Shown: piece by piece, positions 22,442-55,150 of the stretch
Numbering within the stretch: the stretch's first letter is position 1
How the letters are laid out: each line of letters begins with the position of its first letter
NCBI GenBank assembly: GCA_963732385.1
Contig: CAVSZB010000003.1
Coordinates: 128,001 to 192,000 of the forward strand
Reading direction: 5' to 3'
DNA: 64,000 nt
DNA from: an uncultured bacterium
GTDB lineage: Bacteria > Krumholzibacteriota > Krumholzibacteriia > LZORAL124-64-63
The notes under the pieces: model-generated
What the model saw: only the letters and a program-made list of their open reading frames with translations
What the model was told of the DNA's origin: nothing
Databases searched by the model: none
Translations under genes and position numbers: made by a program

Positions 22442-25054
22442 CTACCGCGCGTAAAGCTCGTTCCACCACTCCGGCTCGTTTTTCAGCCACTTCGCGAACC
22501 AGGCGAGGATCGTGTCGTTCCAGAGGATGCGCTGATCGCGATTGATGATGTGATGGTTCTGCCCCTCGACCCGCACGTATTCCACTTCGCGGCCCAGCAG
22601 CTTCAGCGCGGTGTAGAGCTGATCGCTCTCGCCGGGGGGGACATTCGTGTCGGCGCTGCCGTGCAGAAGCAGCAGCGGGGTGTGGATTTTGTCGGCGCTG
22701 AAGAGCGCGCTCTGGTTCACGTACAGATCGCGATGGGACCAGGGAAAGGCATCGGCCAGCGCGCGGGCGCCGTAGTCGTAGCCCCAGTAGCCCTCGCCCC
22801 AGTAGCCGGCGATCGACGAAATTCCGGCATGGCTGATGCCGCAGGCGAACATGTCGGTGCGGGTGAGGAGGTACTCGGTGAGAAAGCCGCCGTACGAGGC
22901 GCCGATGCAGGCGAGCCTGTCCTTGTCGACGAACGGGTGCGCGGCAAGAAAGGCCTGTGTGCCGTCGATCACTTCCTGTGCCGTGCGGGCGCCCCAGTCG
23001 TTGACGTGACGCGCCGCGAATTCCTGCCCGTAGCCGGTGGCTCCGCTCGGTTGCGGCACGTAGACGAAGTAGCCCAGACCGGCCCAGACGTTCTTCGGGT
23101 AGCGCCCGGCGAAGTCGCGTCCCACCGGCGTGGTGCCGCCGTAATAGTAGACGATGCAGGGGTATTTCCGCGCCGGATCGAAGTCGAGCGGGTAGTAGAC
23201 GCGGCCGTCGAGCCGCTCGCCCGACGGCAGTTTCGCCGGCCAGTCCTCGACCCGTCCGAGGCGGACGTCCCGGTAGTATCCGGCCGCCGGCTCCACGATG
23301 ACGCGCGACAGTCCCCGCCTGAGGTCCACCAGCGAGAGGCGCTGCGGCTGTGTGGCGCCGCTGCCGAGCGCGAGGCCGAGCGGGGCATCGACGGCCAGAT
23401 CGAAGTTCTCCACTACGTCCATGTCCACGGCAAGCCGGGTCCACTTCCGTGAAGCAGGGTCGAGGGCCTGAAGATCCTGGCGCTGGCCCGCGACGACCAG
23501 TGCGTAGATGCGCCCGTCCTTGCGGTTCCACGTCATCCGGAGCAGGTCCGGAGCGAAGTCGCGGCTGACCGCCGTCGGCGTGCCGGTACGCAGGTCGTAG
23601 AGGTAGAGCTGACCGCCGTAATCGTTGGCCACGGTCCCCTCCGGCAGGTCCCGGCCCAGGCCGCCGAACGCCGAGGGCGAACCCTGCAGCGCGAGCGCCT
23701 GCCCGTCGGGTCCGTACTCGGCTGCTTCGATCCAGGGGTCGACAAGGATGATTCGCGCGGCCAGCGTGGTCAGGTTTAGCTCCCACAGTTCGCGGTGGGT
23801 GTAGGGGCGCACGGTGTAGTCGGGCCACTCGCGGAAGAACAGGAGCCGGCTGCCGTCCGGGGATATGCGCCAGTTGTCGGCGCTCCACTCGCCGGCGGTG
23901 AGACGGCGCGTGGCGCCGTCCGGCACGGAGACCTGCACGAGGCGCGTGCGGTCGCGCCATTCGGGCTGTCGGTCGGCCAGATTCGCGAAACGCTTCATCT
24001 GGCGCTTGTCGGGCTCGGCCTTGACCACGTGCTGGCAGACCAGGAACGTCCCGTCGGGACTCCAGGCGTACTCGGCGAGGTCTGCGGCATCGCGCAGCAG
24101 GGGCGAGGTTTCGCCGGTCGCGAGGTCGAGCAGCCAGATGGTGGTCCGGTCGTCGGAGCTGCTCGTGTAGGAGAGGCGCAGGCCGGTCGGCGCCCAGCGC
24201 ACGTTGTCCATGTCGAGGGCGCCGCGCCAGCTGCGTTCGAGGCGGCCGTCGGACGCGCGGCGCAGTTCGACCCAGGTCTCGCGCTGCCCGCCCGGCCCGA
24301 CTTCCGCGAGCGTGAGCGCGATGAGCCGGCCGTCCGGCGAGATGGCGGGGGTGGTGATCGCCGGAGCGTCGAGCACGTCGCGGACGGTCTGCGCGCGCAG
24401 CGGGGCGGTCGAGACGCGGAGCGCGTCGGCGGGGACGTCCGTGCCTGGCGCGAGCGACGCGGCGATGCCCCACGCCCCCTTCACCGCGGGATCGGCCACG
24501 GTGTGAAGCAGCAGCAGGTGCCTGCCGGGCGCCAGTTTGAGCGGGGCCGTTTGGCGCGTCTTCGTCGTGTCGCCGGGGGCGGGCGCGGGCGCGAGCGTGA
24601 GTGGTTCACCGTCGAGCCACGCGGCGATCGGGTGTGCGGTGACGAGCGTCAGGGTCGCGGCCAGCCAGCGCCCGCACTCGAGGCGGGTGGCGAGCCAGGC
24701 GACCGACGGCTGGTCGTTCGCCGGGCGCGCCAGGGCCGCTTCCGCGCCCGCGCTCGGCCGCCAGGCGTGGAGGCCCGCGCCGGGCAGCGTCACGGTGTCT
24801 GCGGCGTGCGGATCGAGGCGCCGGGGGTCGAGCGCGCCGGCGTCGGCCAGATCTCCCGCCGCGAACCCTCTCACCTTGTCGGCGTGGAACGCCGGCAACG
24901 GTGCCGGCGTCGGCCCGAGCAGCAGCCACGCCGTCAGCGGGAGGGGGGGCGGGGCCTGGGCGGTGTCGCTCCGGGCGGGCGCAGTCGCGGCGGCGGGCGA
25001 CGACAGGGCCAGAAAGGCAAGCAGGGCGAGGACAAAGGAGCGCTTGAGCGACAT
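22442..25054 (-). CDS. S9 family (prolyl oligopeptidase/DAP2-like) peptidase
   Basis: Signal peptide, beta-propeller SPDG repeats, GASYGG nucleophile, HGSADTNV, GQNH. Confidence 0.92.
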   Translation of the reverse strand: MSLKRSFVLALLAFLALSSPAAATAPARSDTAQAPPPLPLTAWLLLGPTPAPLPAFHADKVRGFAAGDLADAGALDPRRLDPHAADTVTLPGAGLHAWRPSAGAEAALARPANDQPSVAWLATRLECGRWLAATLTLVTAHPIAAWLDGEPLTLAPAPAPGDTTKTRQTAPLKLAPGRHLLLLHTVADPAVKGAWGIAASLAPGTDVPADALRVSTAPLRAQTVRDVLDAPAITTPAISPDGRLIALTLAEVGPGGQRETWVELRRASDGRLERSWRGALDMDNVRWAPTGLRLSYTSSSDDRTTIWLLDLATGETSPLLRDAADLAEYAWSPDGTFLVCQHVVKAEPDKRQMKRFANLADRQPEWRDRTRLVQVSVPDGATRRLTAGEWSADNWRISPDGSRLLFFREWPDYTVRPYTHRELWELNLTTLAARIILVDPWIEAAEYGPDGQALALQGSPSAFGGLGRDLPEGTVANDYGGQLYLYDLRTGTPTAVSRDFAPDLLRMTWNRKDGRIYALVVAGQRQDLQALDPASRKWTRLAVDMDVVENFDLAVDAPLGLALGSGATQPQRLSLVDLRRGLSRVIVEPAAGYYRDVRLGRVEDWPAKLPSGERLDGRVYYPLDFDPARKYPCIVYYYGGTTPVGRDFAGRYPKNVWAGLGYFVYVPQPSGATGYGQEFAARHVNDWGARTAQEVIDGTQAFLAAHPFVDKDRLACIGASYGGFLTEYLLTRTDMFACGISHAGISSIAGYWGEGYWGYDYGARALADAFPWSHRDLYVNQSALFSADKIHTPLLLLHGSADTNVPPGESDQLYTALKLLGREVEYVRVEGQNHHIINRDQRILWNDTILAWFAKWLKNEPEWWNELYAR

Positions 25055-25171
25055 GCTGAGCCTCCACGGAGACGGGGCCGGTTCAGACGGCCCGGAGAGT
25101 GTCGCCGTCCGGCGAAGAGGTTACGGCACGGGATCGGCTCCATCAACTGGGTTGACGCTCAACACGCGGCG

Positions 25172-25187
25172 TGGTCTGGTTCTTGCA
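25172..25187 (+). promoter_or_regulatory. Possible sigma-54 (-24/-12) promoter of the cytochrome operon
   Basis: TGGTCTGGTTCTTGCA has exact GG-N10-GC spacing and TTGCA, about 75 bp upstream of ATG 25263. Confidence 0.35.
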
Positions 25188-25262
25188 TAATCCCCATCTT
25201 TTAAGTTGGGATTCCCGGCCGCAACGGTTTACGGGGGAGGTCGTCGCCTTGGGTGGACACAT

Positions 25263-25973
25263 ATGACATCCCGGCGCGACATCGGTTTTCGTCTCATGGT
25301 GGCTGTGCTGTACGTCACGGCGGCCGCGGTCGTAATGACCGCACTGATCGACGGCTACTCCTATTACATCACGCCGCTGGCAGAGCGCCCGCATATGGAG
25401 GACTACCGCCTGCTGCGTCCCGGCGGGATGCGCGGGCACGGCTACGGCGTGGTCGGCTCGGCGCTGGTCCTGCTGCTGCTGCTCTACTCGGTGCGCAAGC
25501 GCTCGCGATGGTTGCAGAAGTACGGCACGCCCGCGCAGTGGCTGCAGGTGCACATCTGCTTCGGCATCGTGGGGCCGCTGCTGATCATCCTCCACACCTC
25601 ATTCAAGGTGCGGGGGCTGGTGGCCGTGAGTTTCTGGTCGATGATGGCTGTGGCGTTGAGCGGGGTCTTCGGGCGGTGGCTCTACCTGCAGATCCCGCGC
25701 AACCTCGCCGGACACGAACTCTCGCGCCAGGAGATCGCGGCGCTGGAGAAGGAGCTGTCGGAGCGCGTGGCGCAGGAATCACGACCGCGCCAACTGGTCC
25801 GTCTGGCCAGGCGACGGGCAGTCCTGGAGCGCAAGGTGCGGCGACTCGAAACGATCCGCGGCATTTTCCACTGGTGGCATGTCGTTCACAAGCCGTTCGC
25901 GGTCATCATGCTGGTCATCATGCTCGTGCATGTCGCCGTCGCCGCGAGTCTCGGCTACACGTGGGTGTTCTGA
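25263..25973 (+). CDS. Inner-membrane protein with intramembrane His residues (cytochrome b-like candidate)
   Basis: About 5 TM helices; QVHICFG, IILHTS, WHVVHKPF, LVHVA; TGATG coupling to the next gene. Confidence 0.65.
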   Translation: MTSRRDIGFRLMVAVLYVTAAAVVMTALIDGYSYYITPLAERPHMEDYRLLRPGGMRGHGYGVVGSALVLLLLLYSVRKRSRWLQKYGTPAQWLQVHICFGIVGPLLIILHTSFKVRGLVAVSFWSMMAVALSGVFGRWLYLQIPRNLAGHELSRQEIAALEKELSERVAQESRPRQLVRLARRRAVLERKVRRLETIRGIFHWWHVVHKPFAVIMLVIMLVHVAVAASLGYTWVF

Positions 25974-27730
25974 TGCTGCATACGACACTTCGCCTGCGCG
26001 CTCTTTGGCCGCGCGCCGCGGCGCTTCTTTTGGCGCTGTCGGCCGCCGCGCCGGCGTCCGCGCAGCTGAGTCCCGGACCGCTGCACGGGTCGCACCAGAA
26101 ACTCGAAGGGGTGGAGAACTGCACGCGCTGTCACGAAGTGGGGCGCAAGCTCTCCGCGGACAGGTGCCTCGCCTGCCACACCGCCCTCGCGGCGCGGGTC
26201 CGCGCGAAGCAGGGATTGCACGCGCAGCCGGGCCACGAGACCTGCGAGAAGTGTCACGTGGAGCACCAGGGCCGCGACTATCAGCTCATCTGGTGGGGCA
26301 GGGCCGGCCAGGCCGAGTTCGACCACGCACAGACCGGCTGGAAGCTGGAGGGTAAGCACGCGGGCCCGGCCTGCGGGCGGTGTCACAAGCCGGAAGCCGT
26401 CGCCGGCCGGGCGGCGCTCGTGGCCGGCGCCGCCAATCCCCAGCGCACGTTCCTGGGCCTGCGCACCGACTGTGCCGCCTGCCACCGCGATCCGCACTCC
26501 GGCCAGCTCGGGGCGGACTGCCGCTCGTGCCACGGCCTGGAGAGCTGGCGCGGGGCCACCGGTTTCGATCATGCCCGGACGCACTTCCCGCTGACCGGTC
26601 GCCACCGGGATGTCGTCTGCGCGAAGTGCCACCCGGCATTGCCGGCGGAGGCTGACGCCGTCGAGCCGGCAGCTGTGGCCGGCGTACCGGCGGGCGCGGG
26701 GCGACGGCAGTGGCGAGGCGTGGCTTTCGCGGGCTGCGACGACTGCCACCAGGATCCGCACGCCGGACGTCTCGGCGGCGCCTGCGCCTCCTGCCACACG
26801 ACCGAGAGCTGGCGCGCCGTGAGCCAGGCGCGGTTCGATCACGAGCGCACGCGCTATCCGCTGCGTGGGAAGCACATCGCGGTGCCGTGCAAAGGCTGCC
26901 ATCGTCCCGACCGCCCTGCCCGCGGACTGAAGTTCGCGGCCTGCACCGACTGTCACGCCGACCGGCACGCCGGGCAGTTCACGAAGCTCGAGGGGGGGGG
27001 CGACTGCGCCCGCTGCCACTCCGTCGAGGGGTACGCTCCGTCCAGCTACACGGTCGACCGTCACGCCGGCACGACCTATCCGCTCGCGGGGGCGCACCTG
27101 GCCGTGCCGTGCGTCGGCTGCCACGCCCGTCCGCGGGCCGGCGCGCCGGTCTCGGACATCCCGTTCCACTTCGTTTCCACCCGTTGCCAGGTCTGTCATC
27201 GCGATCCTCATCGCGACGAAGCCAGGCCGTGGGTCGACAAGGGCGGCTGCGAGTCGTGCCATCGTCTCGACGCGTGGTCGGCAGCTACCTACGACCACGC
27301 CACGACCAAATTCCCGCTCGCGGACAAGCACGCCACGGCGCGCTGCTCCGCCTGCCACAAGCCGCTGGCGCCCGCTGCGCCGCCCGGGGCCATCCACCTG
27401 CGTGGCGTGGACCGCGCCTGCGAGTCGTGCCATCGCGACCCGCACGCCGGACAGTTTTGCGCCGCGACCGGGGGCGTCACCGCCTGCGAACGCTGCCACG
27501 AAACGGCGAATTGGCGCGCCGGGCGCTTCGATCACAACCGCGAGGCGGCCTTCAGGATCGACGGTGCGCACGCCCGCACCCGTTGCGCGCAGTGCCATCT
27601 CCGCGAGGGGGAGGGCGAGGCGGCCTTCACCCGCTACAAGCCGCTCGGACGGGAATGCGCGACGTGCCATCGGTCGAATCCGGTCCGGCCGGAGGCCGCC
27701 GTCGTCCCGTCGCAGGAAGGAACCCCATGA
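25973..27730 (+). CDS. Multiheme cytochrome c, 20 CxxCH
   Basis: Sec signal peptide (APASA-Q); 20 CxxCH counted by hand; repeating FDH...FPLxGxH modules. Confidence 0.93.
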   Translation: MLHTTLRLRALWPRAAALLLALSAAAPASAQLSPGPLHGSHQKLEGVENCTRCHEVGRKLSADRCLACHTALAARVRAKQGLHAQPGHETCEKCHVEHQGRDYQLIWWGRAGQAEFDHAQTGWKLEGKHAGPACGRCHKPEAVAGRAALVAGAANPQRTFLGLRTDCAACHRDPHSGQLGADCRSCHGLESWRGATGFDHARTHFPLTGRHRDVVCAKCHPALPAEADAVEPAAVAGVPAGAGRRQWRGVAFAGCDDCHQDPHAGRLGGACASCHTTESWRAVSQARFDHERTRYPLRGKHIAVPCKGCHRPDRPARGLKFAACTDCHADRHAGQFTKLEGGGDCARCHSVEGYAPSSYTVDRHAGTTYPLAGAHLAVPCVGCHARPRAGAPVSDIPFHFVSTRCQVCHRDPHRDEARPWVDKGGCESCHRLDAWSAATYDHATTKFPLADKHATARCSACHKPLAPAAPPGAIHLRGVDRACESCHRDPHAGQFCAATGGVTACERCHETANWRAGRFDHNREAAFRIDGAHARTRCAQCHLREGEGEAAFTRYKPLGRECATCHRSNPVRPEAAVVPSQEGTP

Positions 27731-29208
27731 GACTCGCGAAGTGGGCCGTGGCGAGCGCGGCCGTTCTGCTGGCGATCGTGGCTTCTCCGGCCGGCGCGCA
27801 GACGCCGGCAGACAGTCCGCACGGCCCGCTGGCGCTCGACTGCGCGATCTGCCACAACACCGCGGACTGGAGCGTGGCGCCGCGGCCGCCCGCCTTCGAT
27901 CACGGCCGCTCCGGCTTCCCGCTCGCGGGGCGACATGCGGCCGTGAAATGCGGCGACTGCCACCGCGATCTCACCTTCGGGCATGTCGGCAGCGCCTGCG
28001 CCGACTGCCATGTCGACGCCCATCGTGGCCAGCTCGGCCCGAACTGCGAGCGATGCCACGCGCCGACCGGCTGGGAGAGCCGTGGCGTGCTGTTCGAGCA
28101 GCACGCCGAGCGCGGTTTCCCACTCGTCGGCGTGCACGCGGCCGCCGACTGCGAGGCGTGCCATGTCGACCAGCAGCGGCAGGACTTCGTGGGCAACCCG
28201 GTCACCTGCTACGGCTGCCATGCGAACGACTATGCCGCCACGCGCGAGCCCAGCCATCTGCTGACCGGCTTCAGCACGGACTGCTCCCAGTGCCACGTGC
28301 CGACCGCCTCCTGGCGGCCGGTGTTCGTGCAGCACACCCCGGCCTTCCCGTTGCGCAATGCCCACGCCCGTACCGGCTGCCTCTCCTGCCATGCGAGCGG
28401 TTACGCCGGCACCTCGCCCCTCTGCTACTCATGCCACGCGGACGACTACAACGGCACGCAGGAGCCGCCGCATGTCGCCTCCGGCCTGGCGACCGCCTGC
28501 GAGCAGTGTCACACCGACGCCGGCTGGGGCGGCGGCACCTTCGATCACGCCGTGAGCACCGGCTTCGCGCTGACCGGCGCGCATGTGAGCCTCGCCTGCA
28601 CCGCCTGCCACGTGAACGGACTATGGGCCGGCACGCCGCAGGACTGTTACAGCTGCCACGCCGCCGACTACAACGGCACCACCGATCCGCCGCACGCCGC
28701 CTCCGGCATGCCGACAACGTGCCAGCAGTGCCACAGCACGACCACCTGGGGCGACGGCACCTTCGATCACGCCGTGAGCACCGGCTTCGCGCTGACCGGT
28801 GCGCACGCGACCACGACCTGCACGACGTGCCATGTCGATGGGCAGTGGAGCGGCCTGCCGCAGGACTGCGACGGCTGCCACGCCGCGACCTACAATGCCA
28901 CCACCGATCCCGCGCACACCGCGGCGAATTTTCCGCGCACCTGCCAGACCTGCCATACGACGCTTGCCTGGCAGCCGTCGACATGGAACCACGAGACGCT
29001 GTTTCCGATCAACTCCGGGGCGCACCGAACGGTGTGGGCCTCCTGCGCGACCTGCCACGTGAATCCGGCCGACTACGGCGTGTTCGAGTGCATCGACTGC
29101 CACGAGCACAACCGGACCGACACGGACGGCCACCACGACGGCGTCAGGAACTACGAGTATCTCAGCACCGCCTGCTACAGCTGCCACCCGAACGGGAGGG
29201 CCGATTGA
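27727..29208 (+). CDS. Multiheme cytochrome c, 19 CxxCH
   Basis: Signal peptide (PAGA-Q); 19 CxxCH counted by hand; 74-aa triheme repeats; ATGA overlap. Confidence 0.93.
   Translation: MRLAKWAVASAAVLLAIVASPAGAQTPADSPHGPLALDCAICHNTADWSVAPRPPAFDHGRSGFPLAGRHAAVKCGDCHRDLTFGHVGSACADCHVDAHRGQLGPNCERCHAPTGWESRGVLFEQHAERGFPLVGVHAAADCEACHVDQQRQDFVGNPVTCYGCHANDYAATREPSHLLTGFSTDCSQCHVPTASWRPVFVQHTPAFPLRNAHARTGCLSCHASGYAGTSPLCYSCHADDYNGTQEPPHVASGLATACEQCHTDAGWGGGTFDHAVSTGFALTGAHVSLACTACHVNGLWAGTPQDCYSCHAADYNGTTDPPHAASGMPTTCQQCHSTTTWGDGTFDHAVSTGFALTGAHATTTCTTCHVDGQWSGLPQDCDGCHAATYNATTDPAHTAANFPRTCQTCHTTLAWQPSTWNHETLFPINSGAHRTVWASCATCHVNPADYGVFECIDCHEHNRTDTDGHHDGVRNYEYLSTACYSCHPNGRAD
28533..28799 (+). repeat. 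Intragenic direct repeat, 45 bp identical at 222-bp spacing
   Basis: CGGCACCTTCGATCACGCCGTGAGCACCGGCTTCGCGCTGACCGG at 28533-28577 and 28755-28799. Confidence 0.9.
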
Positions 29209-30824
29209 TGCACCGCGCGCAACCAGCTGTCGCCCGCCTCTGGCTGGCCGCCGTGACCATGGCGCTCCTGCTGCCCGCGTCGGCCGCCGCGCGCGAATTC
29301 AAGGTGCGCTATCTTTCGGCCGACTTCGTCTATCTCGACGCCGGCACGGTCGATGGCCTTGCTCCTGGCGACACGCTGCTCGTGTCGCGCCGGGGCGAGG
29401 GCGTGGCCACCCTGGCCGTGGCGCATGCCGCCGAGCATTCGGCGTCGTGCCGCGTGCTCGCCGCGAACACGGCCGTGCAGCCCGGCGATGCCGTGAGGCC
29501 CCTCCGCGACGGGACCGTCACCGTTGCCGCGGCGGTCGCGCCGCCGCCGGCTCCCGCCCCGATCGCCGAGCCGGCGCCGGTCGACGAGCCGTCCGATCCA
29601 CCCTGGGCCCGGGCGAGCGGCTATGTCGCGCTGCAGTGGTACCGGTTCGCGGACCGCGGCGCCTCGGGGCTGGACTACGACCAGCCGACGCTGCGCATCA
29701 ACTTCCGCGCCCGCAAACTGTGGGGGAAGGATCTCACGTTCCAGATGCGCTGCCGCGCCCGGCACGACGGGCGTTCGCGTCGCTACAACGCGACGGTCCC
29801 CGCCGATGAGTGGAGCAATCGCGTCTACGCGCTGTCGCTCGCCTTTGACAATCCGGACGCCACGGTCAACTGGCAGGCGGGGCGGATTGTCTCGAACGCG
29901 CTCGCCGCGACCGGCCCGGTGGACGGCGCGCTGGTGGAAGCCCGCCTCTCCCCGACGCTGCGCGCCGGCGCCTTTGGCGGGTTCCTGCCCGACTGGAGCA
30001 GCACGGCGCCGCGCGGCTCGCTCCGGAAGTACGGCCTGTTCCTGAACGCCGCCGGCGGGGAATACGGCGCGTCGCGGTGGTCGGCGGCGCTGGCCGGCAC
30101 CGCCGAATACCACGGCTCCACGGTGAGCCGTCAGTATCTCTTCCTGCGGAACGACTGGCAGTCCGGACGCCGCTGGAGCCTGTTCCAGAGCTGGGAGATC
30201 GATCTCAACCACGGTTGGCGCCGGCCGCCCGGCACCGCCGCGGTGGAACTGTCGAACGTATACCTCTCGGCCGGCTACCGTCCGGGTGGGCGGACCGCGC
30301 TGTCGGTCAGCTACGACAATCGCCGCAGCTACCGCACCTGGGACAATCGCGCCCTGCCCGACAGCCTGTTCGACGCCGCCTTCCGCACCGGCCTGCGCGC
30401 GAATCTCCACGCCCGCCTGGGCGCCGGCTGGACCGGCTCTGCGGGCGGCGGCTGGCGCCACCGGCAGGGCGAGGCGGACGACACCTGGTCGTGGCACGGC
30501 AGCCTGACCCGCGACGATTTCCTGGGCGAGCGCGTGCGCCTGACCGCGCAGGCCGCCGGCTTCTCGGGGCCGTGGGCCGACGGATTCAATCCTTCGCTGC
30601 AGCTGCAGAAGGCATTCCTGGCCGGTCACCTGATCGGCCTGTCGGGCGGCGAATACCTCTACACGCCGACCGCTGGCGGCGATCGTCGCCAGAACCGCTG
30701 GGCGAGGATCGACGGAACCCGCTACCTGACGACGCGGTTCTTCCTGTCCGGCCAGTACGAACGCGACTGGGGCGATGACGTGGAGGGGGACCGGTTCCTG
30801 GCCGAAGCCGGTCTCAACTTCTAG
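29208..30824 (+). CDS. Outer-membrane beta-barrel (porin candidate) with a small N-terminal soluble domain
   Basis: Signal peptide, Pro-rich linker, amphipathic aromatic-rich strands, C-terminal FLAEAGLNF; TGATG coupling. Confidence 0.75.
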   Translation: MHRAQPAVARLWLAAVTMALLLPASAAAREFKVRYLSADFVYLDAGTVDGLAPGDTLLVSRRGEGVATLAVAHAAEHSASCRVLAANTAVQPGDAVRPLRDGTVTVAAAVAPPPAPAPIAEPAPVDEPSDPPWARASGYVALQWYRFADRGASGLDYDQPTLRINFRARKLWGKDLTFQMRCRARHDGRSRRYNATVPADEWSNRVYALSLAFDNPDATVNWQAGRIVSNALAATGPVDGALVEARLSPTLRAGAFGGFLPDWSSTAPRGSLRKYGLFLNAAGGEYGASRWSAALAGTAEYHGSTVSRQYLFLRNDWQSGRRWSLFQSWEIDLNHGWRRPPGTAAVELSNVYLSAGYRPGGRTALSVSYDNRRSYRTWDNRALPDSLFDAAFRTGLRANLHARLGAGWTGSAGGGWRHRQGEADDTWSWHGSLTRDDFLGERVRLTAQAAGFSGPWADGFNPSLQLQKAFLAGHLIGLSGGEYLYTPTAGGDRRQNRWARIDGTRYLTTRFFLSGQYERDWGDDVEGDRFLAEAGLNF

Positions 30825-30843
30825 CGGACGGCGGGAGGACGGC

Positions 30844-32283
30844 GTGGAGAACCTGCTGATCTGGGGCGTCGTTGCGGTCCTCTGCGCGGTCATTCTCATT
30901 CCGTACGCGGTCGGCTTCCGACGGCGCAACCGGACCGACACGGCGCGCCGCGAGGAGGCGGTTCAGCTTGGCGCCGACCGCCCGGTCGCCCAGTACCCGC
31001 TCATCGACGAGGGGCAGTGCATCGGCTGCGGCGCCTGCGTGGCGGCCTGTCCCGAGGGGGATGTGCTCGGCATCGTCGATGGACGGGCCGTCATCGTGAA
31101 CGGCATGCGCTGTATCGGACACGCGCGCTGCGCCGATGCCTGCCCGGTCGGCGCGCTCCAGGTCGGTCTCGGCGATGTCGGCGAGCGCGAGGACATTCCG
31201 CGGCTGACCGCGGACTGTGAGACCACCGTGCCCGGCGTGTATATCGCCGGCGAGCTGAGCGGTTTCGCCCTCATCCGCAACGCCATCAGCCAGGGGGAGC
31301 GGGTCGTGATGACGGTGGCGCGGCGGCTGCGGGCGGCCGGTCCCGCCGCCGTCGAGCCCCCCGCCCCGGGAGGCGTCGCCGACGGTGCGCGTCTGCGCGA
31401 TCTTATCATCGTGGGGGCCGGACCGGCCGGGATGAGCGCCGCCCTGACGGCGCGACGCGAGGGGCTGTCGTACCTCGTTCTGGAGCAGGAGCAGGCCGGC
31501 GGCACGATTCTGCAGTATCCGCGCAAGAAAGTGGTCCTCACCCAGCCGGTAGAGATCCCGCTCTACGGCCGTCTCGACCGCGAGGAGTACACCAAGGAGG
31601 AGCTGCTCGGCATCTGGCAGGAGGCACGCGAGCAGTTCGAACTGCACGTGCGCACCGGCGAGAAGCTCGAGATGATCACGCACCGCCCCGACGGTCTGCT
31701 GGCCGTCCGCACCCAGACCGGCGAATGGCTCGCGCGCGCCGTCATCCTGGCGCTCGGACGCCGCGGTACGCCGCGCCGGCTCGGCGCGCCCGGGGAGGAG
31801 CTGGAAAAGGTCGCCTACAAGCTGCTCGATGCCGAATCGTACCACGGTGAGAATCTGCTCGTGATCGGTGGCGGCGACAGCGCCGTGGAGGCCGCGCTCG
31901 GGCTGGCGCGCCAGCCGGGCAACACCGTCACCCTGGCGTACCGCAAGGAGAAGCTGTTCCGCATCAAGAAGCGCAACGCGGAGCGCTTTGCCGCCGCGCT
32001 GGTCGCGAACGAGGTGAAAACGCTGTTTTCCGCCGAGGTCACGGCGATCCTGCCCGACCGTGTGCGCCTGCGCCGGGGGGACGTCGAGATCGAACTGCCG
32101 AACGACTACGTTTTCATCTTCGCCGGAGGTGAGCCGCCCTATCCGCTGTTGCAGCGCATGGGCATCGCTTTCGGCGGCAAGGCGACCCGGCGCGCCGATG
32201 CGTTGCCCGCGTCGCCCGCGCCCTCCACGTCGCCCGCCCGCGCCGTCGCCTCCGATCTGCCCACCGCCGCCCACAGGCGTTGA
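30844..32283 (+). CDS. Membrane-anchored ferredoxin-flavoprotein (thioredoxin-reductase-like NAD(P)/FAD oxidoreductase)
   Basis: N-terminal TM helix; CIGCGACVAACP; CIGHARCADACP; GAGPAG; GGGDSAVE; GGGAGG RBS before GTG. Confidence 0.85.
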   Translation: MENLLIWGVVAVLCAVILIPYAVGFRRRNRTDTARREEAVQLGADRPVAQYPLIDEGQCIGCGACVAACPEGDVLGIVDGRAVIVNGMRCIGHARCADACPVGALQVGLGDVGEREDIPRLTADCETTVPGVYIAGELSGFALIRNAISQGERVVMTVARRLRAAGPAAVEPPAPGGVADGARLRDLIIVGAGPAGMSAALTARREGLSYLVLEQEQAGGTILQYPRKKVVLTQPVEIPLYGRLDREEYTKEELLGIWQEAREQFELHVRTGEKLEMITHRPDGLLAVRTQTGEWLARAVILALGRRGTPRRLGAPGEELEKVAYKLLDAESYHGENLLVIGGGDSAVEAALGLARQPGNTVTLAYRKEKLFRIKKRNAERFAAALVANEVKTLFSAEVTAILPDRVRLRRGDVEIELPNDYVFIFAGGEPPYPLLQRMGIAFGGKATRRADALPASPAPSTSPARAVASDLPTAAHRR

Positions 32284-32303
32284 TTTCCGGCGGTGTTCGG
32301 CTC

Positions 32304-33598
32304 ATGCTGAGCGGCATGCGCCGGTTCGGACATGCTGCGACTCCACCGTCACCCTGGCTCGTGCCGGCCCTGTTCGTGGCCGTCGGCGCGGCGCTGCAGG
32401 CGGTCCATCACGGTCCGCTTCTCCAGACCGTGGAAAACGACTTCGTCGGCCACGCCGCCCGCGCCGCAAGCTGGCGCGCGGTCTTCACCCTGCACGGTCT
32501 CTATCCGTTCGGCTATGCGTTCGTGTTGCGGCTCGGGACCCTGCTGCTGGCCGACCCGTTCGTCGCGGCCAGGATAATCGCCGTCGTCTCGGCCGGTCTG
32601 TCCCTGCGCGTGGCGCACGCGCTGGCCCGCGAACTGTTCGGGCCGGGCGCGGCGCTGGCCACGCAGGTATTTCTCGCCCTGAACTGGCACTTCCACGAGA
32701 CGGCCCTGCTCGTCGGCACGGATCAACTCGCCTCTCTGATCGCCTTGCTGGCCGTGCGGGCGCTGGTCGCGTCGCTGCGGGACGCGACGTTTTCCCGCGC
32801 GATCAGCGGGGGGGGTGGGCCGGTGCCGCCGCGCTCGTGCGCCAGACCGCGCTGGTCCTGCTGCCGGCCTTCGTGCTGGCGGCGCTCTGGATCGCGTTGC
32901 GCGGGCGCGACGGACGCCGTCGGTGGCTGCTCGCGGTCGTGACCGTGGGCGCCGGCCTGGCGGTCTACGCGCCGCAGATGGCGATCTCCTGGCGCGAGAC
33001 CGGCACGCCGTTCCACCATACCCAGGCCCGGAACGTCTGGTTCGGGCTGCACGGCGAAATGGACTGGAGCCGATCGCCGGGGGAGCGCGAGCTGTCGCTG
33101 ATCGGCATCGTGCGCGACGACCCGCGTCTCTTCTTCACGCACTGGGCGAACGAAACGGTCCTCGGCGGCATCCGTCTCGCGGCGATGACCGTCGGCCAGT
33201 TCCCCCCCTGGCTGGCGCGGCGGGTGGGCGGGATCGTTCCGGTCATCTGCGGCTGCCTGACCGGCCTTGCCGTGCTGGCGACGCTGGTCAGCCTGCGCCC
33301 GCTGCGACTGCGTCGGCTGGCGCGACAGATCGCGCTGCCGGGCGGCGTCGCGCTGTTTTTGATCCTGCTCGTAGGCGGCTGGACGGCCGCAGTGGGCCTC
33401 GCCTTTTCCACTTCGCGGTTCCTGCTCACTCCCTGGATCGTCTGCGCGATCGTCGCCGTGGCTCTTTTCCGGAGCGTCTGCCTGCCGGGCGACGGGGGAC
33501 TGGACCGGCGCGCCGCGCTGGCGCAGGGCGCCTGGCTGCTGACGCTGCTGGTCCACGCCGTCTGCGTGATCTGGTTGACGTTCCGGCTGGGCGCCTGA
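32304..33598 (+). pseudogene. GT-C/ArnT-like membrane glycosyltransferase split by a frameshift at a G8 tract (phase-variable, pseudogene or sequencing error)
   Basis: The N-half frame (ends 32942) and the C-half frame (ends 33598) join at the G8 run 32808-32815: ...RAISG / WAGAAALVRQT. Confidence 0.65.
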
Positions 33599-33668
33599 GA
33601 CGCCGAATCCGGACGCGTCGACCGGTCGCGGTTGATTTCTCCGGCCTTCCGGCCCATGCTGTGGCGCG

Positions 33669-34523
33669 ATGAGACCAGGCGAGGAGATCAAGCGGTTCGG
33701 CCTCTTTCTGCGGCGCCTCCAGCGCGAGATGGGGTACGACGACTGCATGGGGATGGCGGCGCAGATCGCCTTCTACATGCTGCTGTCCATCTTTCCCTTC
33801 CTTGTCTTCCTGCTGAGCCTCATCAGTTTCCTGCCCATCCCCGACCTGGATCGCCATGTCATGGGGGTGCTGAGCGAGTCGCTTCCCGTGGAGTCCTTCC
33901 AGCTGGTCGCCGACACGGTGCAGTCGCTGCTGACGACCCGCCGCGAGGAGTTGCTCGGCGTCGGCCTGCTGGTGGCGCTCTGGTCGGGATCGATGGGGAT
34001 CGGCGCCATCATCACCACGATCAATCGCGCCTACAACATCCGCCCGCGGCGTTCGCTCGTGGAGCAGAAGCTCCTCGCCATCGTGCTCACGATCGCACTG
34101 AGCGGCATCATGCTGCTGTCGACGGTGCTTGTGCTGGTCGGCCCCCACGCCACCCACGTCATCTTCCAGTTCCTGGGTCTGGCCGGCGACAGCTACAACG
34201 CCTGGACGCAGCTGCGCCTGGCTGTCGTGTTCGGACTGAACCTGCTCACGCTCGCCCTGCTCTACTATTTCGGACCGGAGGCGCGCCAGGAGTTCCGCTG
34301 GATCCTGCCCGGCGCGGTCACCTCGACCGTGCTGTGGCTCGGCGCCTCCTCGCTGTTCCGCCTGTTCGTGCGCAATTTCGGCTCCTACAACGCCACCTAC
34401 GGCTCACTGGCCGCGTTCGTCATCCTCATGGTGTGGCTCTGGATGAGCGGCCTGATCTTCCTGCTCGGCGCGGAGATCAACGCGGGGATGAAACGCATGG
34501 ACCTGCACGAAGAACGACCCTGA
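33669..34523 (+). CDS. YihY/BrkB family membrane protein
   Basis: AAQIAFYMLLSIFP, YNATYGSLAA, LLGAEIN. Confidence 0.92.
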   Translation: MRPGEEIKRFGLFLRRLQREMGYDDCMGMAAQIAFYMLLSIFPFLVFLLSLISFLPIPDLDRHVMGVLSESLPVESFQLVADTVQSLLTTRREELLGVGLLVALWSGSMGIGAIITTINRAYNIRPRRSLVEQKLLAIVLTIALSGIMLLSTVLVLVGPHATHVIFQFLGLAGDSYNAWTQLRLAVVFGLNLLTLALLYYFGPEARQEFRWILPGAVTSTVLWLGASSLFRLFVRNFGSYNATYGSLAAFVILMVWLWMSGLIFLLGAEINAGMKRMDLHEERP

Positions 34524-35478: not shown

Positions 35479-38400
35479 ATGCTCCGTCGTCACGTGCTGT
35501 TTTCCTGCCTGATTCCGGCCCTTGCGGCGCTGGCTGCGGGGGCCGGTCTCGTGGGCGCCGCCACGATCGATCCCGGCCTGCAGGCTGAACTGGGCGCCAA
35601 GGGCGCCGGCGCCGCGGTCGACGTGCTGATGCTGTTCGACGATACGTTCGATTACCCTGCCCTGGACCGTGGTCTCGATGGAGCTGCGCCGGAGGTGCGG
35701 CGGGCGGCGGTGGTCGCGGCGCTGAAGGAACGCGCGGAGACGGATCAGGCGGAGGCGCGCCACGCGCTCGAGGTCGCCGTGCGCGCCGGTCGCGCCACGA
35801 ACGTGCGCGTGCTCTGGCTTGCCGACGCGCTGGCCTTTCGCGGCGATGCGGCGACAGTGCAGACCCTCGCCGCCACGAAGAGTACCGCCACGCTGATCCA
35901 CGACAAGCCGTACGACATGGCGGGCGGCGTGACCGCGGCTCCGCGCGCCGCAGACCAGCCCCGACCCGCCGCGGCAAGGTTGATGACCTCCGCGAACGAC
36001 ACGGCGTGGAGCGTGAAATGGGTGAAGGCGAACCGCGTATGGCTCGACACCGGCTGCAACGGCTACGGGATCGTGGTGGCGCACTTCGACACCGGCGTGT
36101 GGCTGATGCATCCCGACCTCGCCAGCCGGCTCTGGGTGAATTCGGGCGAAATCGCCGGCAACGGTCTTGACGACGATGGCAACGGCTACGTGGACGACGT
36201 CAACGGCTACGATTTCGCCGACTTCGACGGTGATCCGAATGATGACGTGACCGGCGTCGCCGCCGGCCACGGCACGCACACCGCCGGCACCTTGGCCGGC
36301 GACGGCACGAACGGTACGATTACCGGCGTCGCCCCGGGCGCGCGGGTGATGGTCTGCAAGGTCTTCTATTCGGATGGTTCGGGCGCGCCGTTCAGCGTCA
36401 TCTACGAGGGGCAGCAGTACGCCATCCTGGAGGGGGCCCGGGTCTTCACCATGTCGCTCGGCATCGGCGGCTATCTGCCGGTGTCGCTCCACAAGACCGA
36501 GCGGCAGAACGCCGAGGGCATCCGCACGGCCGGCGTGGCGTTCTTCAACGCGTCCGGCAATGACCACGGCTTCTACAGCCCTCCCGACGAACTTGGCGTG
36601 ACGGCCCGCGTGCCGGCCCCTTGGCACGCCGCCGGCACCGCCTGGAGCTCGCGCGGTGGGGTGATCTCCGTCGGCGGCACTGGCTACCTGAACGACACGA
36701 TCTACGCCGTATCATCGTGGGGCCCGGCTTACTGGGGCGATGTGTCGCCATGGAACGACTGGCCTTCCCCGACCGGCATCATCAAGCCGGACATCTGCGC
36801 GCCGGCCGTCAATGTCAATTCGCTTCTGAAGCCGGACGGCTACTCCGGCGACACCTGGAGCGGGACCTCGATGGCCACCCCGCACGCCGCGGGCGTGGCG
36901 GCGCTCATGCTGTCGAGGAACCCATCGTTGTCTCCAGCCGGCATCGACTCGATCATCGAGCAGACCGCCACACCGCTCGGCGCGGCAGGCAAGGACAACA
37001 CCTACGGCGCGGGCGCCATCAACGCGCTGGCGGCGGTCAACGCGGTGCCGGCGGCGCTGCATCCGTACCTGGTGCGATCCACGCTCACGATCGATGACGC
37101 CGACGCTGACGGCGCGATCGATCCGGGCGAGAGCTTCAACCTGCTCATCACTCTTCGGAACAACAGTTCGCTGGTGAACGCCACCGGCGTCACGGCGGGT
37201 CTGGTCGTGGCGGCGAACCCGTACGTCACCGTCAGTGACGGTTACGCGGTCTACCCGGATCTCGCCACGGGCACAGAATCGGCCGCGAACGCGGGTGATC
37301 TGTTCGCCCTCACGGTTGGCGCCGCCGCCCCGCAGGGCTACGTCTTCACCTGCCGGCTGACCATGTTCGCGGCGGACGGCTATCAGGTGACCGAGGATTT
37401 CAAGCTGCCGGTCGGTCTGCCCGAGTACCGCGATCACGATGCCGGCCGGGTCTACCTGACCGTCACCGATCAGGGCACGCTCGGCTTCATGAACGATACC
37501 CTCAGCCTCGGCAACGGGTTCGGCCGCGTCAATGAAGGCAGCGTGCTTTACCTCGGCTCATTCTGGGGAGGCACCGGCGAGAACTACATCTGTAACCACG
37601 ATTACAGCGGGACCGCCGTCGGCACTACGGTCGAGACCTACGAGTGGGTTGCCTCCTCCACGCCCCTCGGGCGGGTGGCCGCAGTCAACACCGGCGTGGC
37701 GCCGCAGGAATACCAGGCCATCTTCAACGATTCCGGCCATGCCGCGCCGCGGGATCTCCTGGTAACCCAAAACAGCTACGCCTGGACGGATGCGGCCAGC
37801 GAGGACTTCGTCGTTCTCAGGTACACGATACGCAACACCGGCGTGGCCGCGGTGACCGATTACCACGCCGGCGTGTTCTGCGACTGGGACCTTGGCAATT
37901 CCGGCCAGAACTACGGCGATTCCGATATCGCGCGCCACCTGACCTACATGTATGAGAACGCGGCCGGGCCCTGCGTCGGCATCGCGCTGCTTTACCCCGA
38001 TGCGCACCGCAACCTGACGCTGATCGATAATGCCACCTACGTCTATCCGGAGGGGTCGATCGACGATGGCGTGAAGGCGCGCCACCTCAGGGGCACCATG
38101 TCGCTGCCGACCGCCACCACCGCGGCGGACTACTCCGCTCTCACCTCCGCCGGACCGTTCGCGATCGATCCGGGTGCGGAAATTTCTGTGGCCTTCGCGC
38201 TGATCTACGGGGACAACCTCGCCGACCTGCGGGCCAACGCGGACGTCGCGCAACTCATGTACCGCGACCCGTTGGAAGAGGAAACGCCGGTTCGGTGCCT
38301 CGACCAGAACCGCCCGAATCCCTTCAACCCGTTTACGCTGATCAACTACTCGATCGAGCGCGAGGGCCCGGTCACGTTGACTGTGTTCGACCCCGGCGGT

Positions 38401-38565: not shown

Positions 38566-38643
38566 CATTTCAGGGACGGAGGAGCAGGCCGCGCCCTGCC
38601 CGCATTTCCGGTTGATCGGACCCTTTTCCTGGAGCGTTCGCAC

Positions 38644-41136: not shown

Positions 41137-41284
41137 CCATGCGGGCCAGATATCCTACAAAATTCGTTGGACATTAGCGGTCGCTCTTCACTTATTTGGC
41201 AGTGCCCGCACGTGGCGGTACAATGCAGTGTGCCGCGGCCCGCCCCGGGCGGTCGGCCCTCCTTTCACTCCGGCAGGTGACGCC

Positions 41285-47546: not shown

Positions 47547-48005
47547 ATGAATTCTTCCATGCCTCCCGCCGCGGTCAGCAGTGGCGTACAGGCTGATTTT
47601 GCGACCGTCCTCATCTTTATCCTGTTCGGGATATTTTTCGGCCTCCTCGCGCTGGGCATCGCCCGGCTGCTGCGGCCGAATCATCCCACCCCGGAGAAGC
47701 TGACTACCTACGAGTGCGGAGAGCTGCCGCGCGGCTCGTCGTGGGTGCGCTTCAATGTCCGGTTCTATCTGGTGGCGCTGTTCTTCATCGTCTTTGACGT
47801 CGAGGTCATCTTCCTCTTCCCGTGGGCGGTCGTTTTCCGCCAGTTCCTGGGGGTGAGCGGCCTCGGCGCGCTCGTCTTCTGGGAGATGGTCCTGTTTCTG
47901 ACGATTCTCGCGGCGGGGCTGGCGTATGTCTGGGGCAAGGGGGACCTCGACTGGGTCCGGAGCCTGGCCGCCCGTCCGTCGGGCGAGGAGGTGGCGGCCG
48001 AATGA
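47547..48005 (+). CDS. nuoA: NADH-quinone oxidoreductase subunit A
   Basis: [24 protein letters not shown]. Confidence 0.95.
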
Positions 48006-48640: not shown

Positions 48641-48649
48641 GGGGGGCGC

Positions 48650-50457: not shown

Positions 50458-50459
50458 CC

Positions 50460-51512: not shown

Positions 51513-51545
51513 CGGTCTGGCGCCGGACGCCCCGGGAGAGGCCCC

Positions 51546-52878: not shown

Positions 52879-52942
52879 CGCCGGACGCGCCGCGTCGGCG
52901 CGCCGCGCCGGGCCCGCGGCCCGAAGGGGGAGCGCAGAAACG

Positions 52943-55120: not shown

Positions 55121-55150
55121 GAGGGCGGCAACTCGAGAGGAGCGGCACGC

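Follow-up and report, generated by a model that had tools for sequence, protein, structure and literature searches.

The operon at 25263-32283 of the window (the whole stretch of 64,000 nucleotides that was analysed) may encode a PCC3-type redox chain across the whole cell envelope, in which the flavoprotein g5 would feed electrons from cytoplasmic NAD(P)H outward; we give this reading a probability of about 0.55. Five co-directional genes on the + strand made up the operon (Table 1), and four of them were linked via overlapping stop/start codons. The g1/g2 and g3/g4 junctions each had one base in common (TGATG), the g2/g3 junction had four (ATGA), and a gap of 19 bases lay between g4 and g5. 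In total the operon encoded 39 CxxCH motifs (20 in g2 and 19 in g3). The gene count, junction types and heme-motif counts given in an earlier note on this DNA were all re-checked on the sequence and were borne out. The GTG start of g5 agreed with the aligned start of its orthologues, and a g5 that started farther upstream, at the ATG at 30775, would overlap g4.

Table 1. Positions of the operon genes and neighbouring features in the window.
Feature	Positions	Strand	Details
S9-peptidase gene	22442-25054	-	Pfam Peptidase_S9 E 1.4e-42; divergent from g1
Intergenic region, 208 bp	25055-25262		Between the divergent S9-peptidase gene and g1; presumed operon promoter region
g1	25263-25973	+	ATG start, 236 aa
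g2	25973-27730	+	ATG start, 585 aa
g3	27727-29208	+	ATG start, 493 aa
Tandem repeat in g3	28432-28922	+	222 bp (74 aa, three hemes), 2.2 copies
g4	29208-30824	+	ATG start, 538 aa, C-terminal end ...GLNF
g5	30844-32283	+	GTG start, 479 aa
ResB and CcsA genes (system II cytochrome c maturation)	41228-43659	+	Pfam ResB E 1.4e-77, Cytochrom_C_asm E 8e-41

Synteny kept across rearrangements, together with natural g1/g5 fusions, indicated that g5 belongs to the system and is linked to g1. All five genes were present in 12/14 stretches of relatives' genomes and in 49/79 loci from genome contigs. For the 46 informative loci, i.e., the subset of the 79 with enough flanking DNA, the synteny search found the five genes together in 44, spread over several phyla, so the co-occurrence on which the earlier note depended was observed. 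The locus labels were Krumholzibacteriia, Calditrichota, Ignavibacteria, Zixibacteria, Eisenbacteria, Thermoanaerobaculia, Holophagae, and others. Gene order among 42 loci with five complete ORFs was g1-g2-g3-g4-g5 (31 loci), g1-g5-g2-g3-g4 (6), g5-g1-g2-g3-g4 (2), or another order (3). As several gene orders occur, the five-gene association survives rearrangement. One second-copy locus (L019) held just g3-like and g4-like genes up to the contig end. The cluster was patchy, as 61 of the 151 genomes sampled in the phylum had the g1 type, and it is therefore an accessory trait.

Fusions of g1-type and g5-type proteins were seen in five protein clusters (P0128, P0130-P0133) and in both orders, which backed the link between membrane protein and flavoprotein drawn in the earlier note. 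In P0128 the g1-type domain (29-297; hhalign 99.6%, E 2.7e-24) came first and the g5-type part (319-723; 39% identity, E 7e-88) second. Its gene adjoined g2-like, g3-like, and g4-like genes in L102, directly after them, and the fusion junction was also covered by a second contig, L103. P0132 and P0133 had the opposite order, and P0130 and P0131 were additional g1-type fusions with flavoproteins. These orders were consistent with the topology of the two proteins (g1 N-in/C-out, g5 N-out/bulk-in). Two other partners of the g1-type domain were a polyferredoxin (P0126, hhalign 99.9%) and a 23-CxxCH cytochrome (P0129).

The membrane protein g1 showed five hydrophobic TM segments (11-29, 59-77, 96-114, 118-136, and 212-230). 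Its loops obeyed the positive-inside rule, the cytoplasmic ones being basic, and the five helices and loop charge placed the N-terminus inside and the C-terminus outside. The intramembrane His noticed in the earlier note proved to be conserved: H97, H111, H206, H209, and H223 were invariant in 42 orthologues from several phyla, as were W205, S133, G134, and G137. Two WX3HX13H motifs were found in 90/92 orthologues, and SGxxG was present in all 92. Members of the family (n = 42) matched DUF4405 (27), Ferric_reduct (15), and Ni_hydr_CYTB (12) weakly, every match falling below the curated cut-offs. The AF2 model had a pLDDT of 93.4, and its comparison with solved structures gave no informative match. 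The prediction for g1 is an inner-membrane cytochrome of the PCC3 'IMP' type with two b hemes. A purified DUF4405 protein has been described to bind heme b (PMC11334425).

In g5, a TM anchor at the N-terminus (5-23) preceded a ferredoxin domain of the 2x[4Fe-4S] type (about 53-107; Fer4_10 E 1.2e-10) and an FAD/NAD(P) domain of thioredoxin-reductase fold (about 120-446; Pyr_redox_3 E 4.9e-42). The protein had two cysteine motifs of ferredoxin type as well as Rossmann motifs for FAD and NAD(P). C59, C65, C69, C90, H93, C96, C100, GxGxxG, GGGDSA, Y366, R367, and R373 were invariant in the orthologues. One cluster motif, CxGHxxCxxxC[PG] (63/64 orthologues), carried an invariant His where Cys is expected. 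NAD(P)H would be the substrate as judged by these motifs, which belong to a fold that also serves other substrates. No twin-arginine signal was present and basic residues directly followed the TM segment, so the domain is placed in the cytoplasm. The nearest solved chains were of the YpdA/Bdr type (7a76 and 7a7b, E about 1e-23), and the best NCBIfam match was YpdA, whose cut-off of 339.9 is far above the 160 bits reached. The two-Rossmann fold and NAD(P)H motifs of the g5 flavin part also occur in its nearest solved relatives, YpdA/Bdr bacillithiol-disulfide reductase and TrxR-type ferredoxin-NADP+ reductases (7a76, 7a7b, 3ab1). Unlike these enzymes, g5 has a TM anchor, a ferredoxin domain, and no conserved thiol. 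A disulfide reductase role was ruled out because the flavin part lacked a redox-active CxxC (past residue 180, CxxC was seen in 1/64 orthologues). There was also a weak sign that the last FAD-binding unit of g5 lies before GxGxxG instead of after it.

Both cytochromes were dense in hemes, with 29 aa per heme in g2 and 26 aa per heme in g3. Shuffled g2 and g3 (2000 shuffles each) gave a mean CxxCH count of 0.24 and maxima of 2 and 4. Pfam Cytochrome_C7 matched g2 (E 9.9e-23) and g3 (E 5.7e-24), and both scored far below the MtrA/DmsE model. Their His content (46 and 41, respectively) was sufficient for bis-His ligation. Heme number was steady in g2, with 20 CxxCH in 51/69 orthologous ORFs and in 11/12 ORFs of relatives' genomes; across 57 g3-orthologous ORFs it ranged from 11 to 85. 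g3 was made of repeated triheme modules, detected by Tandem Repeats Finder with 81% matches and a score of 613, and exactly one 74-aa module was missing from the g3 of a congener. The g2 N-terminus, judged by eye, resembled a signal peptide without a lipobox Cys. Going by these features, g2 is likely a secreted cytochrome c that acts as a heme wire spanning the periplasm, and g3 is likely a secreted cytochrome c that acts as the outer or barrel-associated wire. Neither cytochrome carried a lipobox, nor was a route of export to the cell surface identified, so an extracellular g3 is an assumption.

In the product of the fourth gene, the signal peptide was followed by a small beta domain (31-98), a linker rich in Pro/Ala (101-130), and a putative barrel (135-537) ending in Phe; most orthologues ended in ...YRF, RRF, or similar. 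The AF2 model, built with 36 orthologues, had a mean pLDDT of 88.6 and 22 strands by DSSP. SusC BT1762 was the best VIA-align match (Z 19.6, rmsd 4.0, 364 aligned), followed by FyuA (17.9), Cir (17.9), and BtuB (17.6). Foldseek matched ushers and Occ porins (E about 1e-8), and searches of Pfam and NCBIfam gave zero family matches. The beta-barrel assigned to this product in the earlier note was upheld, as the prediction was of high confidence and the best structural matches were 22-strand outer-membrane barrels. g4 is thus predicted to be an outer-membrane barrel of about 22 strands, and g3 is the cytochrome that we infer to sit in or at it.

The earlier note did not recognise a characterised system, but g1-g4 match the PCC3 cluster type described from sequence by He, Barco, Emerson & Roden in 2017 (PMC5566968). 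In that description, a PCC3 cluster encodes a porin, two cytochromes (one periplasmic with about 21 hemes, one repetitive with up to 85), and an IMP of about 300 aa whose five TM helices include TM4 with SGXXG and TM3 and TM5 with WX3HX13H. Compared by description only, the g1-g4 core fits every one of these published features: both systems have a barrel gene, a ~20-heme cytochrome, a repetitive cytochrome whose heme number varies widely, a low residue/heme ratio in both cytochromes, and a 5-TM membrane protein with SGXXG and two WX3HX13H. The membrane protein of the window is shorter (236 aa), and carriers of the window type belong to other phyla, whereas PCC3 was described in Proteobacteria. 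PCC3 descriptions (PMC5566968, PMC9900912) give four genes; the window adds a conserved fifth, the TM-anchored ferredoxin-flavoprotein. A preprint (10.1101/2025.02.27.639646) still regarded PCC3 as functionally unverified.

The same kind of membrane protein is described for PCC4 and for porin-less clusters of a multiheme c, a 5-TM HX13H membrane protein, and a redox protein (PMC5566968). Subgroup II has an Fe-S protein gene beside the membrane protein gene, annotated as fused in one genome, which parallels P0126. In PCC4 as described there, unlike in the window, a large repetitive cytochrome is absent, and the periplasmic cytochromes are three small proteins with 4, 5, and 10 hemes.

Along the path that we infer, NAD(P)H would reduce the g5 FAD on the cytoplasmic side, and electrons would pass through the two Fe-S clusters of g5 to g1, first to its inner b heme (H97 with H209 or H206) and then to the outer one (H111 with H223). 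The 20-heme g2 would take them up in the periplasm, and the modular 19-heme g3, in or at the 22-strand barrel g4, would lead them out of the cell, where the acceptor could be, for example, Fe(III) or Mn(IV) minerals, humic matter, or a partner cell. The potential of NAD(P)H is near -320 mV, and the membrane potential favours a flow of electrons out of the cell. By this path, the cell would re-oxidise pyridine nucleotides while bypassing the quinone pool.

Because of this proposed NAD(P)H, FAD, Fe-S, and b heme path, the inner-membrane part would be a split analogue of NADPH oxidase. NOX/FRE enzymes likewise lead electrons from cytoplasmic pyridine nucleotide via flavin and two stacked b hemes, held by HX13H pairs of TM3 and TM5, to an acceptor outside the membrane. 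Their single-chain layout is shared by the fused P0128, P0132, and P0133, and the PCC3 membrane protein has already been likened to NOX and ferric reductases (PMC5566968). The folds differ from those of NOX/FRE: g1, with its five TM helices, does not score as a Ferric_reduct member, and g5 has a thioredoxin-reductase fold with an inserted di-cluster ferredoxin in place of the FNR-like FAD/NADPH module. The acceptor would be a multiheme cytochrome, in contrast to O2 or an Fe(III) chelate.

MtrCAB (Shewanella) and Pcc/Ext (Geobacter) also combine multiheme cytochromes with an outer-membrane barrel. They differ from the window in their decaheme or smaller cytochromes, lipoprotein outer cytochrome, and 26-strand MtrB, and they are quinol-fed by CymA, ImcH, or CbcL, encoded elsewhere. 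A quinol-fed conduit is the first alternative for the window, with g1 as a quinol-oxidising (or quinone-reducing) di-heme cytochrome b, the cytochromes and barrel as the onward carriers of electrons, and g5 as an accessory enzyme (e.g., for keeping the hemes reduced) or as a minor additional input. A quinone link has been proposed in the literature for the membrane proteins of PCC3 and PCC4 (PMC5566968), and the Ni_hydr_CYTB family weakly matched by g1 relatives comprises quinone-reactive cytochromes b. A quinone-linked complex I operon was present in the same genome, therefore NADH has another outlet. Quinol feeding would, however, leave unexplained why g5 stays with g1 through several rearrangements and why g1 is fused in both orders with g5-type flavoproteins and also with a polyferredoxin. 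No quinone-site motif came up among the motifs identified by the general analysis. We consider quinol feeding unlikely.

A reversed direction, in which an extracellular donor (Fe(II) minerals, reduced humics, a cathode, or a partner cell) would reduce g1 through the wire and g5 would then reduce NAD(P)+ or another cytoplasmic acceptor, appears rather unlikely. Multiheme wires conduct both ways. PCC3 is known in Fe(II)-oxidising bacteria and was expressed in Sideroxydans cultures (PMC5566968, PMC9900912, 10.1101/2025.02.27.639646), and its literature discusses inward flow in Fe(II) oxidation through a quinone-linked cytochrome b (PMC5566968). Against this, the cluster encodes no energy-coupling device, and secreted peptidases encoded in the surroundings weakly suggest an organotroph. 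Flow from Fe(II) to NAD(P)+ is also strongly uphill (several hundred millivolts), and electrons moving inward would have to go against the membrane potential.

Very unlikely is a module, like MsrQ or DsbD, that brings cytoplasmic reducing power into the periplasm for a periplasmic or outer-membrane reaction, with the hemes as an electron store and g4 as a transport barrel: related di-heme membrane proteins (MsrQ-like, PepSY-like, DUF4405) serve periplasmic reductions (PMC11334425), comparable clusters without a porin are known (PMC5566968), and the best structural matches of g4 were TonB-dependent transporter barrels, but the barrel gene was kept in all 44 complete informative loci, g4 had no TonB-transporter plug and matched no such family, and Pfam annotation of the operon and surrounding window gave no terminal reductase gene in the operon.

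A sigma-70 consensus scan of 24800-34000 gave zero sites. The ResB/CcsA genes, 9 kb downstream and not part of the operon, are needed for attaching the 39 hemes.

The operon has five + strand genes at window positions 25263–32283, and this layout agrees exactly with the earlier note in coordinates, overlaps, and heme counts. The overlaps of g1/g2, g2/g3, and g3/g4 are 1, 4, and 1 bases, and the gap between g4 and g5 is 19 bases. In 2000 shuffles per protein the average was 0.24 CxxCH motifs and the highest counts were 2 and 4; the heme motifs of g2 and g3 are far above chance. A scan of 24800–34000 found no sigma-70-like promoter, and terminator-like sites were at chance level. The upstream neighbour (a divergent S9-peptidase gene) and the downstream neighbour (a short ORF weakly matching PMT_2) lie outside the conserved set.

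Genes of the operon in window coordinates
Gene	Position	Strand	Length	Feature
g1	25263–25973	+	236 aa	predicted membrane protein
g2	25973–27730	+	585 aa	multiheme cytochrome, 20 CxxCH
g3	27727–29208	+	493 aa	multiheme cytochrome, 19 CxxCH
g4	29208–30824	+	538 aa	predicted barrel, C-terminal Phe
g5	30844–32283	+	479 aa	ferredoxin/FAD/NAD(P) protein, GTG start

The g1 profile found at least 545 relatives in one-genome-per-species contigs, and relatives of g1 form 2023 protein clusters in a large protein collection. Synteny was counted for the best 79 of these at least 545 loci, all from metagenome-assembled genomes, with labels of Krumholzibacteriia, Calditrichota, Ignavibacteria, Zixibacteria, Eisenbacteria, Thermoanaerobaculia, Holophagae, and others. 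The co-occurrence of the five genes elsewhere, for which a synteny search had been suggested, was found in several phyla: the five genes were detected together in 49 of the 79 loci and in 44 of the 46 informative loci, which extend at least 8.5 kb beyond g1 on the downstream side and at least 1.5 kb on the upstream side. The remaining two have g4 at the very end of the DNA examined. The 42 loci in which all five ORFs are complete have the order g1-g2-g3-g4-g5 in 31, g1-g5-g2-g3-g4 in six, g5-g1-g2-g3-g4 in two, and other orders in three. A g4 relative was present in 16 of 41 related genomes, and 12 of the 14 stretches around their g4 matches held all five genes; one exception begins at the contig start. 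The other, L019, is an additional copy in the genome of one relative, with g3-like and g4-like genes; its contig ends inside g4, and g1, g2, and g5 are absent from the 6.5 kb upstream. It may be a partial second conduit sharing the inner-membrane module of the first. Within the phylum of the window the g1 type is unevenly distributed, with 61 positives among 151 sampled genomes and 48 among the 117 of good quality.

The four-gene core g1–g4 shows every descriptive feature of PCC3, a porin-cytochrome cluster type predicted from sequence by He et al. 2017 (PMC5566968), an assignment made on the published descriptive features. In the account of that paper the cluster comprises a porin, a periplasmic cytochrome (median 21 hemes; 21–27), a second, repetitive cytochrome called 'extracellular' (median 34 hemes, up to 85), and a membrane protein of ~300 aa with five TM segments, SGXXG on TM4, and WX3HX13H on TM3 and TM5, whose likeness to ferric-reductase/NOX domains it notes. 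Here too a barrel gene is present (g4, ~22 strands in the model). g2 has 20 CxxCH compared with the published ~21, and g3 is repetitive and, as in PCC3, of very variable heme number (11–85 among 57 orthologous ORFs), with a putative extracellular place. g1 has five TM segments, SGXXG, and both WX3HX13H motifs, with 236 aa compared with ~300. The earlier note, which recognised no characterised system, is therefore to be amended: the operon is a variant of the sequence-predicted PCC3 type (PMC5566968), and the conserved, sometimes fused flavoprotein g5 is its point of interest. The same four PCC3 genes are listed, and their function called untested, in the available portions of PMC9900912 and preprint 10.1101/2025.02.27.639646. 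These portions and the accessible text of PMC5566968 do not mention a flavoprotein partner; 'FAD' is absent from the main text of PMC5566968, whose Supplementary Figure 4/Table 6 ('other redox proteins' domains) could bear on it. A search for descriptions of the five-gene set or its flavoprotein partner also covered the accessible parts of PMC7399161, PMC5317091, PMC6137239, PMC4245776, PMC9324843, PMC11334425, and preprint 10.64898/2026.05.27.727921, in which the partner is likewise unmentioned.

The five hydrophobic segments and basic loops of g1 predict an N-terminus inside and a C-terminus outside. H97, H111, W205, H206, H209, H223, S133, G134, and G137 are invariant in 42 orthologues from several phyla, so the membrane histidines, on whose conservation the earlier note had made its proposal depend, are retained. 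The motifs are W93-H97-H111, S133-G134-x-x-G137, and W205-H209-H223; of 92 orthologues, 90 have two WX3HX13H and all have SGxxG. The pairs H97/H111 and H209/H223 each have a 13-residue spacing and lie near two faces of TM3 and TM5. In ferric-reductase/NOX domains, His pairs 13 apart on two helices hold two stacked b hemes, and g1 shares this arrangement of His with NADPH oxidases and ferric reductases. However, g1 scored 14.9 bits with Ferric_reduct (PF01794; cut-off 28; weak matches in 15 of 42 relatives), and instead of the FNR-like FAD_binding_8/NAD_binding_6 domain of that family g5 has a thioredoxin-reductase fold with Fer4. The window g1 was below every Pfam cut-off. Its DUF4405 (PF14358) score was 19.6 bits (gathering threshold 26.7), and 27 of 42 relatives matched DUF4405 at E up to 0.1 (best 4.2e-5), which indicates a distant relationship only; Ni_hydr_CYTB matched weakly in 12 of 42. 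DUF4405, Ferric_reduct, and Ni_hydr_CYTB are related di-heme families. A purified DUF4405 protein bound heme b (PMC11334425).

For the AlphaFold model of g1 (pLDDT 93.4), Foldseek gave no match at E <= 0.001. The matches listed by VIA-align were just long-helix and coiled-coil chains (Z up to 8.8), and no NOX, STEAP, or MsrQ chain was among the matches listed for the model. The g1 profile found nothing below E 0.5 in PDB sequences; these searches assigned g1 to no solved fold, and a protein atlas search returned unnamed clusters only (scores 0.86–0.87). In the genus of the window g1 has 236 aa, compared with 280–300 aa in most relatives, and lacks ~50 residues of the TM4–TM5 cytoplasmic loop (alignments A1 and A3); its genome-search match comes in two pieces.

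The N-termini of g2 and g3 resemble signal peptides and have no lipobox; for g2 this signal peptide suggests a periplasmic location. Both proteins match c7/c3-type multiheme domains, with 29 (g2) and 26 (g3) residues per heme and His enough for bis-His ligation. Neither had a meaningful match in PDB sequences. Of 69 orthologous g2 ORFs, 51 have 20 CxxCH, and the whole set ranges from 11 to 24. g3 is built from a 74 aa module with three hemes, seen as a 222-bp tandem repeat at window 28432–28922. The g3 of a congener, a genome of the same genus (L022:6776–8032), lacks exactly one module (419 compared with 493 aa, 16 compared with 19 CxxCH), so the length of the heme wire varies within the genus by module gain or loss. 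The congener g2 is in two frames (tblastn pieces L022:5020–6048 and 6042–6776; also L023:9711–10739), which points to a frameshift or to misassembly. Some relatives have giant g3-type genes, for example L037:11945–17893, with up to 85 CxxCH per ORF, or have additional cytochrome genes lying among g2, g3, and g4, so that the barrel gene lies 5–9 kb from g1. Unlike the decaheme MtrA/DmsE-family cytochrome of MtrCAB, g2 and g3 have 20 and 19 hemes, and their TIGR03508 scores of 28.6 and 46.7 bits are below the cut-off of 192.2. A Geobacter-type Pcc cluster was also considered and rejected, as its heme numbers and lipoprotein cytochrome (PMC4245776) do not match.

g4 had no family match in Pfam or NCBIfam. 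Its AF2 model (pLDDT 88.6) predicts a ~22-strand barrel, joined by a 30-residue linker to a small beta domain. The beta-barrel proposed previously for this product is thus supported by a confident prediction, with outer-membrane barrels as its best matches. The best structural match was SusC (Z 19.6, rmsd 4.0 over 364 residues), followed by FyuA, Cir, and BtuB (Z 17.6–17.9). All four are 22-strand barrels of TonB-dependent transporters, whose plug domain is absent from g4. Ushers (24-strand) and Occ porins (18-strand) came lower. MtrB has a 26-strand barrel, compared with ~22 strands in the g4 model, and was not in the best 50 matches listed by Foldseek or VIA-align; the two barrels may nonetheless be related.

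The N-terminal anchor of g5 is followed by basic residues, so the bulk of the protein is predicted to be cytoplasmic. A di-cluster ferredoxin is joined to a thioredoxin-reductase-fold FAD/NAD(P) part (Pfam: Pyr_redox_3, Pyr_redox_2, and Fer4 domains), and YpdA/Bdr chains are the nearest solved relatives of the flavin domain. The cluster ligands are invariant. The first motif is the canonical CxxCxxCxxxCP in 54 of 64 orthologues, and the second, CxGHxxCxxxC[PG] in 63 of 64, has His in place of the second Cys; from this sequence it could be either a His-ligated 4Fe-4S or a 3Fe-4S cluster. A role as disulfide reductase was dropped because there is no conserved thiol pair, with a CxxC in the flavin part, beyond residue 180, in only 1 of 64 orthologues. 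Unlike thioredoxin reductase and YpdA (Bdr), g5 thus has no redox-active CxxC, and its family scores are below the cut-offs (TIGR04018 (YpdA), 160 bits, cut-off 339.9; TIGR01292, 85.8 bits, cut-off 343.45). Within residues ~115–182 (window 31186–31389), 'PGVYIAGEL..LIRNA..QG' stands before the GxGxxG motif, and residues ~120–170 weakly match (E 0.04–0.9) the FAD-binding motif with which the FAD/NAD fold of lipoamide dehydrogenase and thioredoxin reductase ends; the flavin domain may be circularly permuted. In three relatives of other families, which have the order g1-g5-g2-g3-g4, g5 has no N-terminal TM anchor and begins with a zinc-ribbon-like CxxC...CxxC (L016:13130–14491, L018:13142–14464, L020:12399–13724).

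Longer proteins containing the g1-type domain form eight clusters (P0126–P0133), and five of them (P0128, P0130, P0131, P0132, P0133) join it to a g5-type flavoprotein. The g1 part comes first in P0128 and the flavoprotein comes first in P0132 and P0133; P0130 and P0131 are further forms. In P0128, residues 29–297 matched the g1 profile (99.6%) and residues 319–723 matched g5 with 39% identity (E 7e-88). At locus L102 the P0128 gene directly follows g2-like (36 CxxCH), g3-like, and g4-like genes, and a second contig covers the fusion junction. P0126 joins a polyferredoxin and P0129 a 23-heme cytochrome c to the g1-type domain. P0127 looks like a miscalled ORF, with a g1-type gene running into the adjacent cytochrome gene. 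In their order the fusions are consistent with the predicted g1 and g5 topologies: the outside C-terminus of g1 would continue into a cytochrome c or a flavoprotein anchor helix, and its inside N-terminus would follow a cytoplasmic flavoprotein. Predicted as a complex together with two hemes and two Fe-S clusters, g1 and g5 scored 0.12 and 0.19, the mark being 0.32, a result without weight for or against their binding.

We propose that g5 and g1 form a split NOX-like entry module that feeds a heme wire. Electrons would pass from NAD(P)H to FAD and two Fe-S clusters, all in g5, then to the inner and outer b heme of g1, to the 20 c hemes of g2 and the 19 of g3, and from g3, at or through the barrel g4, to an extracellular acceptor. 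What we infer here is that the cofactors are all bound, that g2 precedes g3, where g3 lies, which donor is used, and which way the electrons flow. We give this whole mechanism a probability of roughly 0.55; the narrower claims, a PCC3-type envelope conduit and g5 as redox partner of g1, are probable, more so than the whole. That PCC3-type conduits in general are quinone-independent, with a split NOX-like NAD(P)H dehydrogenase injecting cytoplasmic electrons into an envelope-spanning heme wire, is a more tentative suggestion.

The Gram-negative extracellular electron transfer routes Mtr and Pcc/Ext draw on the quinone pool, and to our knowledge the only well-studied NADH-linked route, the flavin-based Listeria system, also runs via a quinone. 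In a rival reading the conduit is fed by quinol and g5 serves as an accessory enzyme, in line with the quinone-active cytochrome b proposed in PMC5566968; next to the conserved g5 gene and the g1–g5 fusions, it appears unlikely. Slightly less likely again is inward electron uptake, the flow that the same paper proposes for iron oxidisers. We prefer the outward direction on thermodynamic grounds: NAD(P)H is strongly reducing, electrons moving outward run with the membrane potential, and NAD(P)+ reduction from Fe(II) would need an energy input for which the cluster has no gene. A periplasmic supply line, not extracellular, is improbable.

A conduit fed by a cytoplasmic NAD(P)H flavoprotein, as we prefer, would be a different bioenergetic design, with no proton pumping at the entry step and a direct sink for excess reducing power. 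Because the gene set is widespread, the mechanism matters for the cycling of iron, manganese, and humics in sediments and soils, and also for the reading of the PCC3 clusters of iron oxidisers. If the quinone-independent reading of PCC3-type conduits is true, fermentative and organotrophic bacteria from many poorly studied phyla might respire minerals or humics directly from pyridine nucleotides, and the published quinone-linked, iron-oxidation view of PCC3 would need revision. The g5 partner makes a quinone-independent NAD(P)H-to-surface route a concrete, testable hypothesis, and the system is compact (five genes, 7 kb) and therefore directly testable by heterologous expression.

Further genes were observed in the surroundings. 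ResB and CcsA (system II cytochrome c maturation) are at window 41228–43659, 9 kb downstream of the operon. A complex I operon at 47822–58181 has nuoB, C, D, H, I, J, K, L, M, and N (Pfam); nuoE, F, and G are absent between D and H, so the locus encodes a form of complex I without the usual NADH-binding module. Three large secreted proteins with FlgD_ig C-terminal domains are encoded at 35479–41064 and 59265–62408. Two are peptidases (subtilase, M6); the one at 59265–62408 had no peptidase-domain match and matched a type IX secretion sorting tail. These secreted FlgD_ig proteins and peptidases fit an organotroph of the FCB group.
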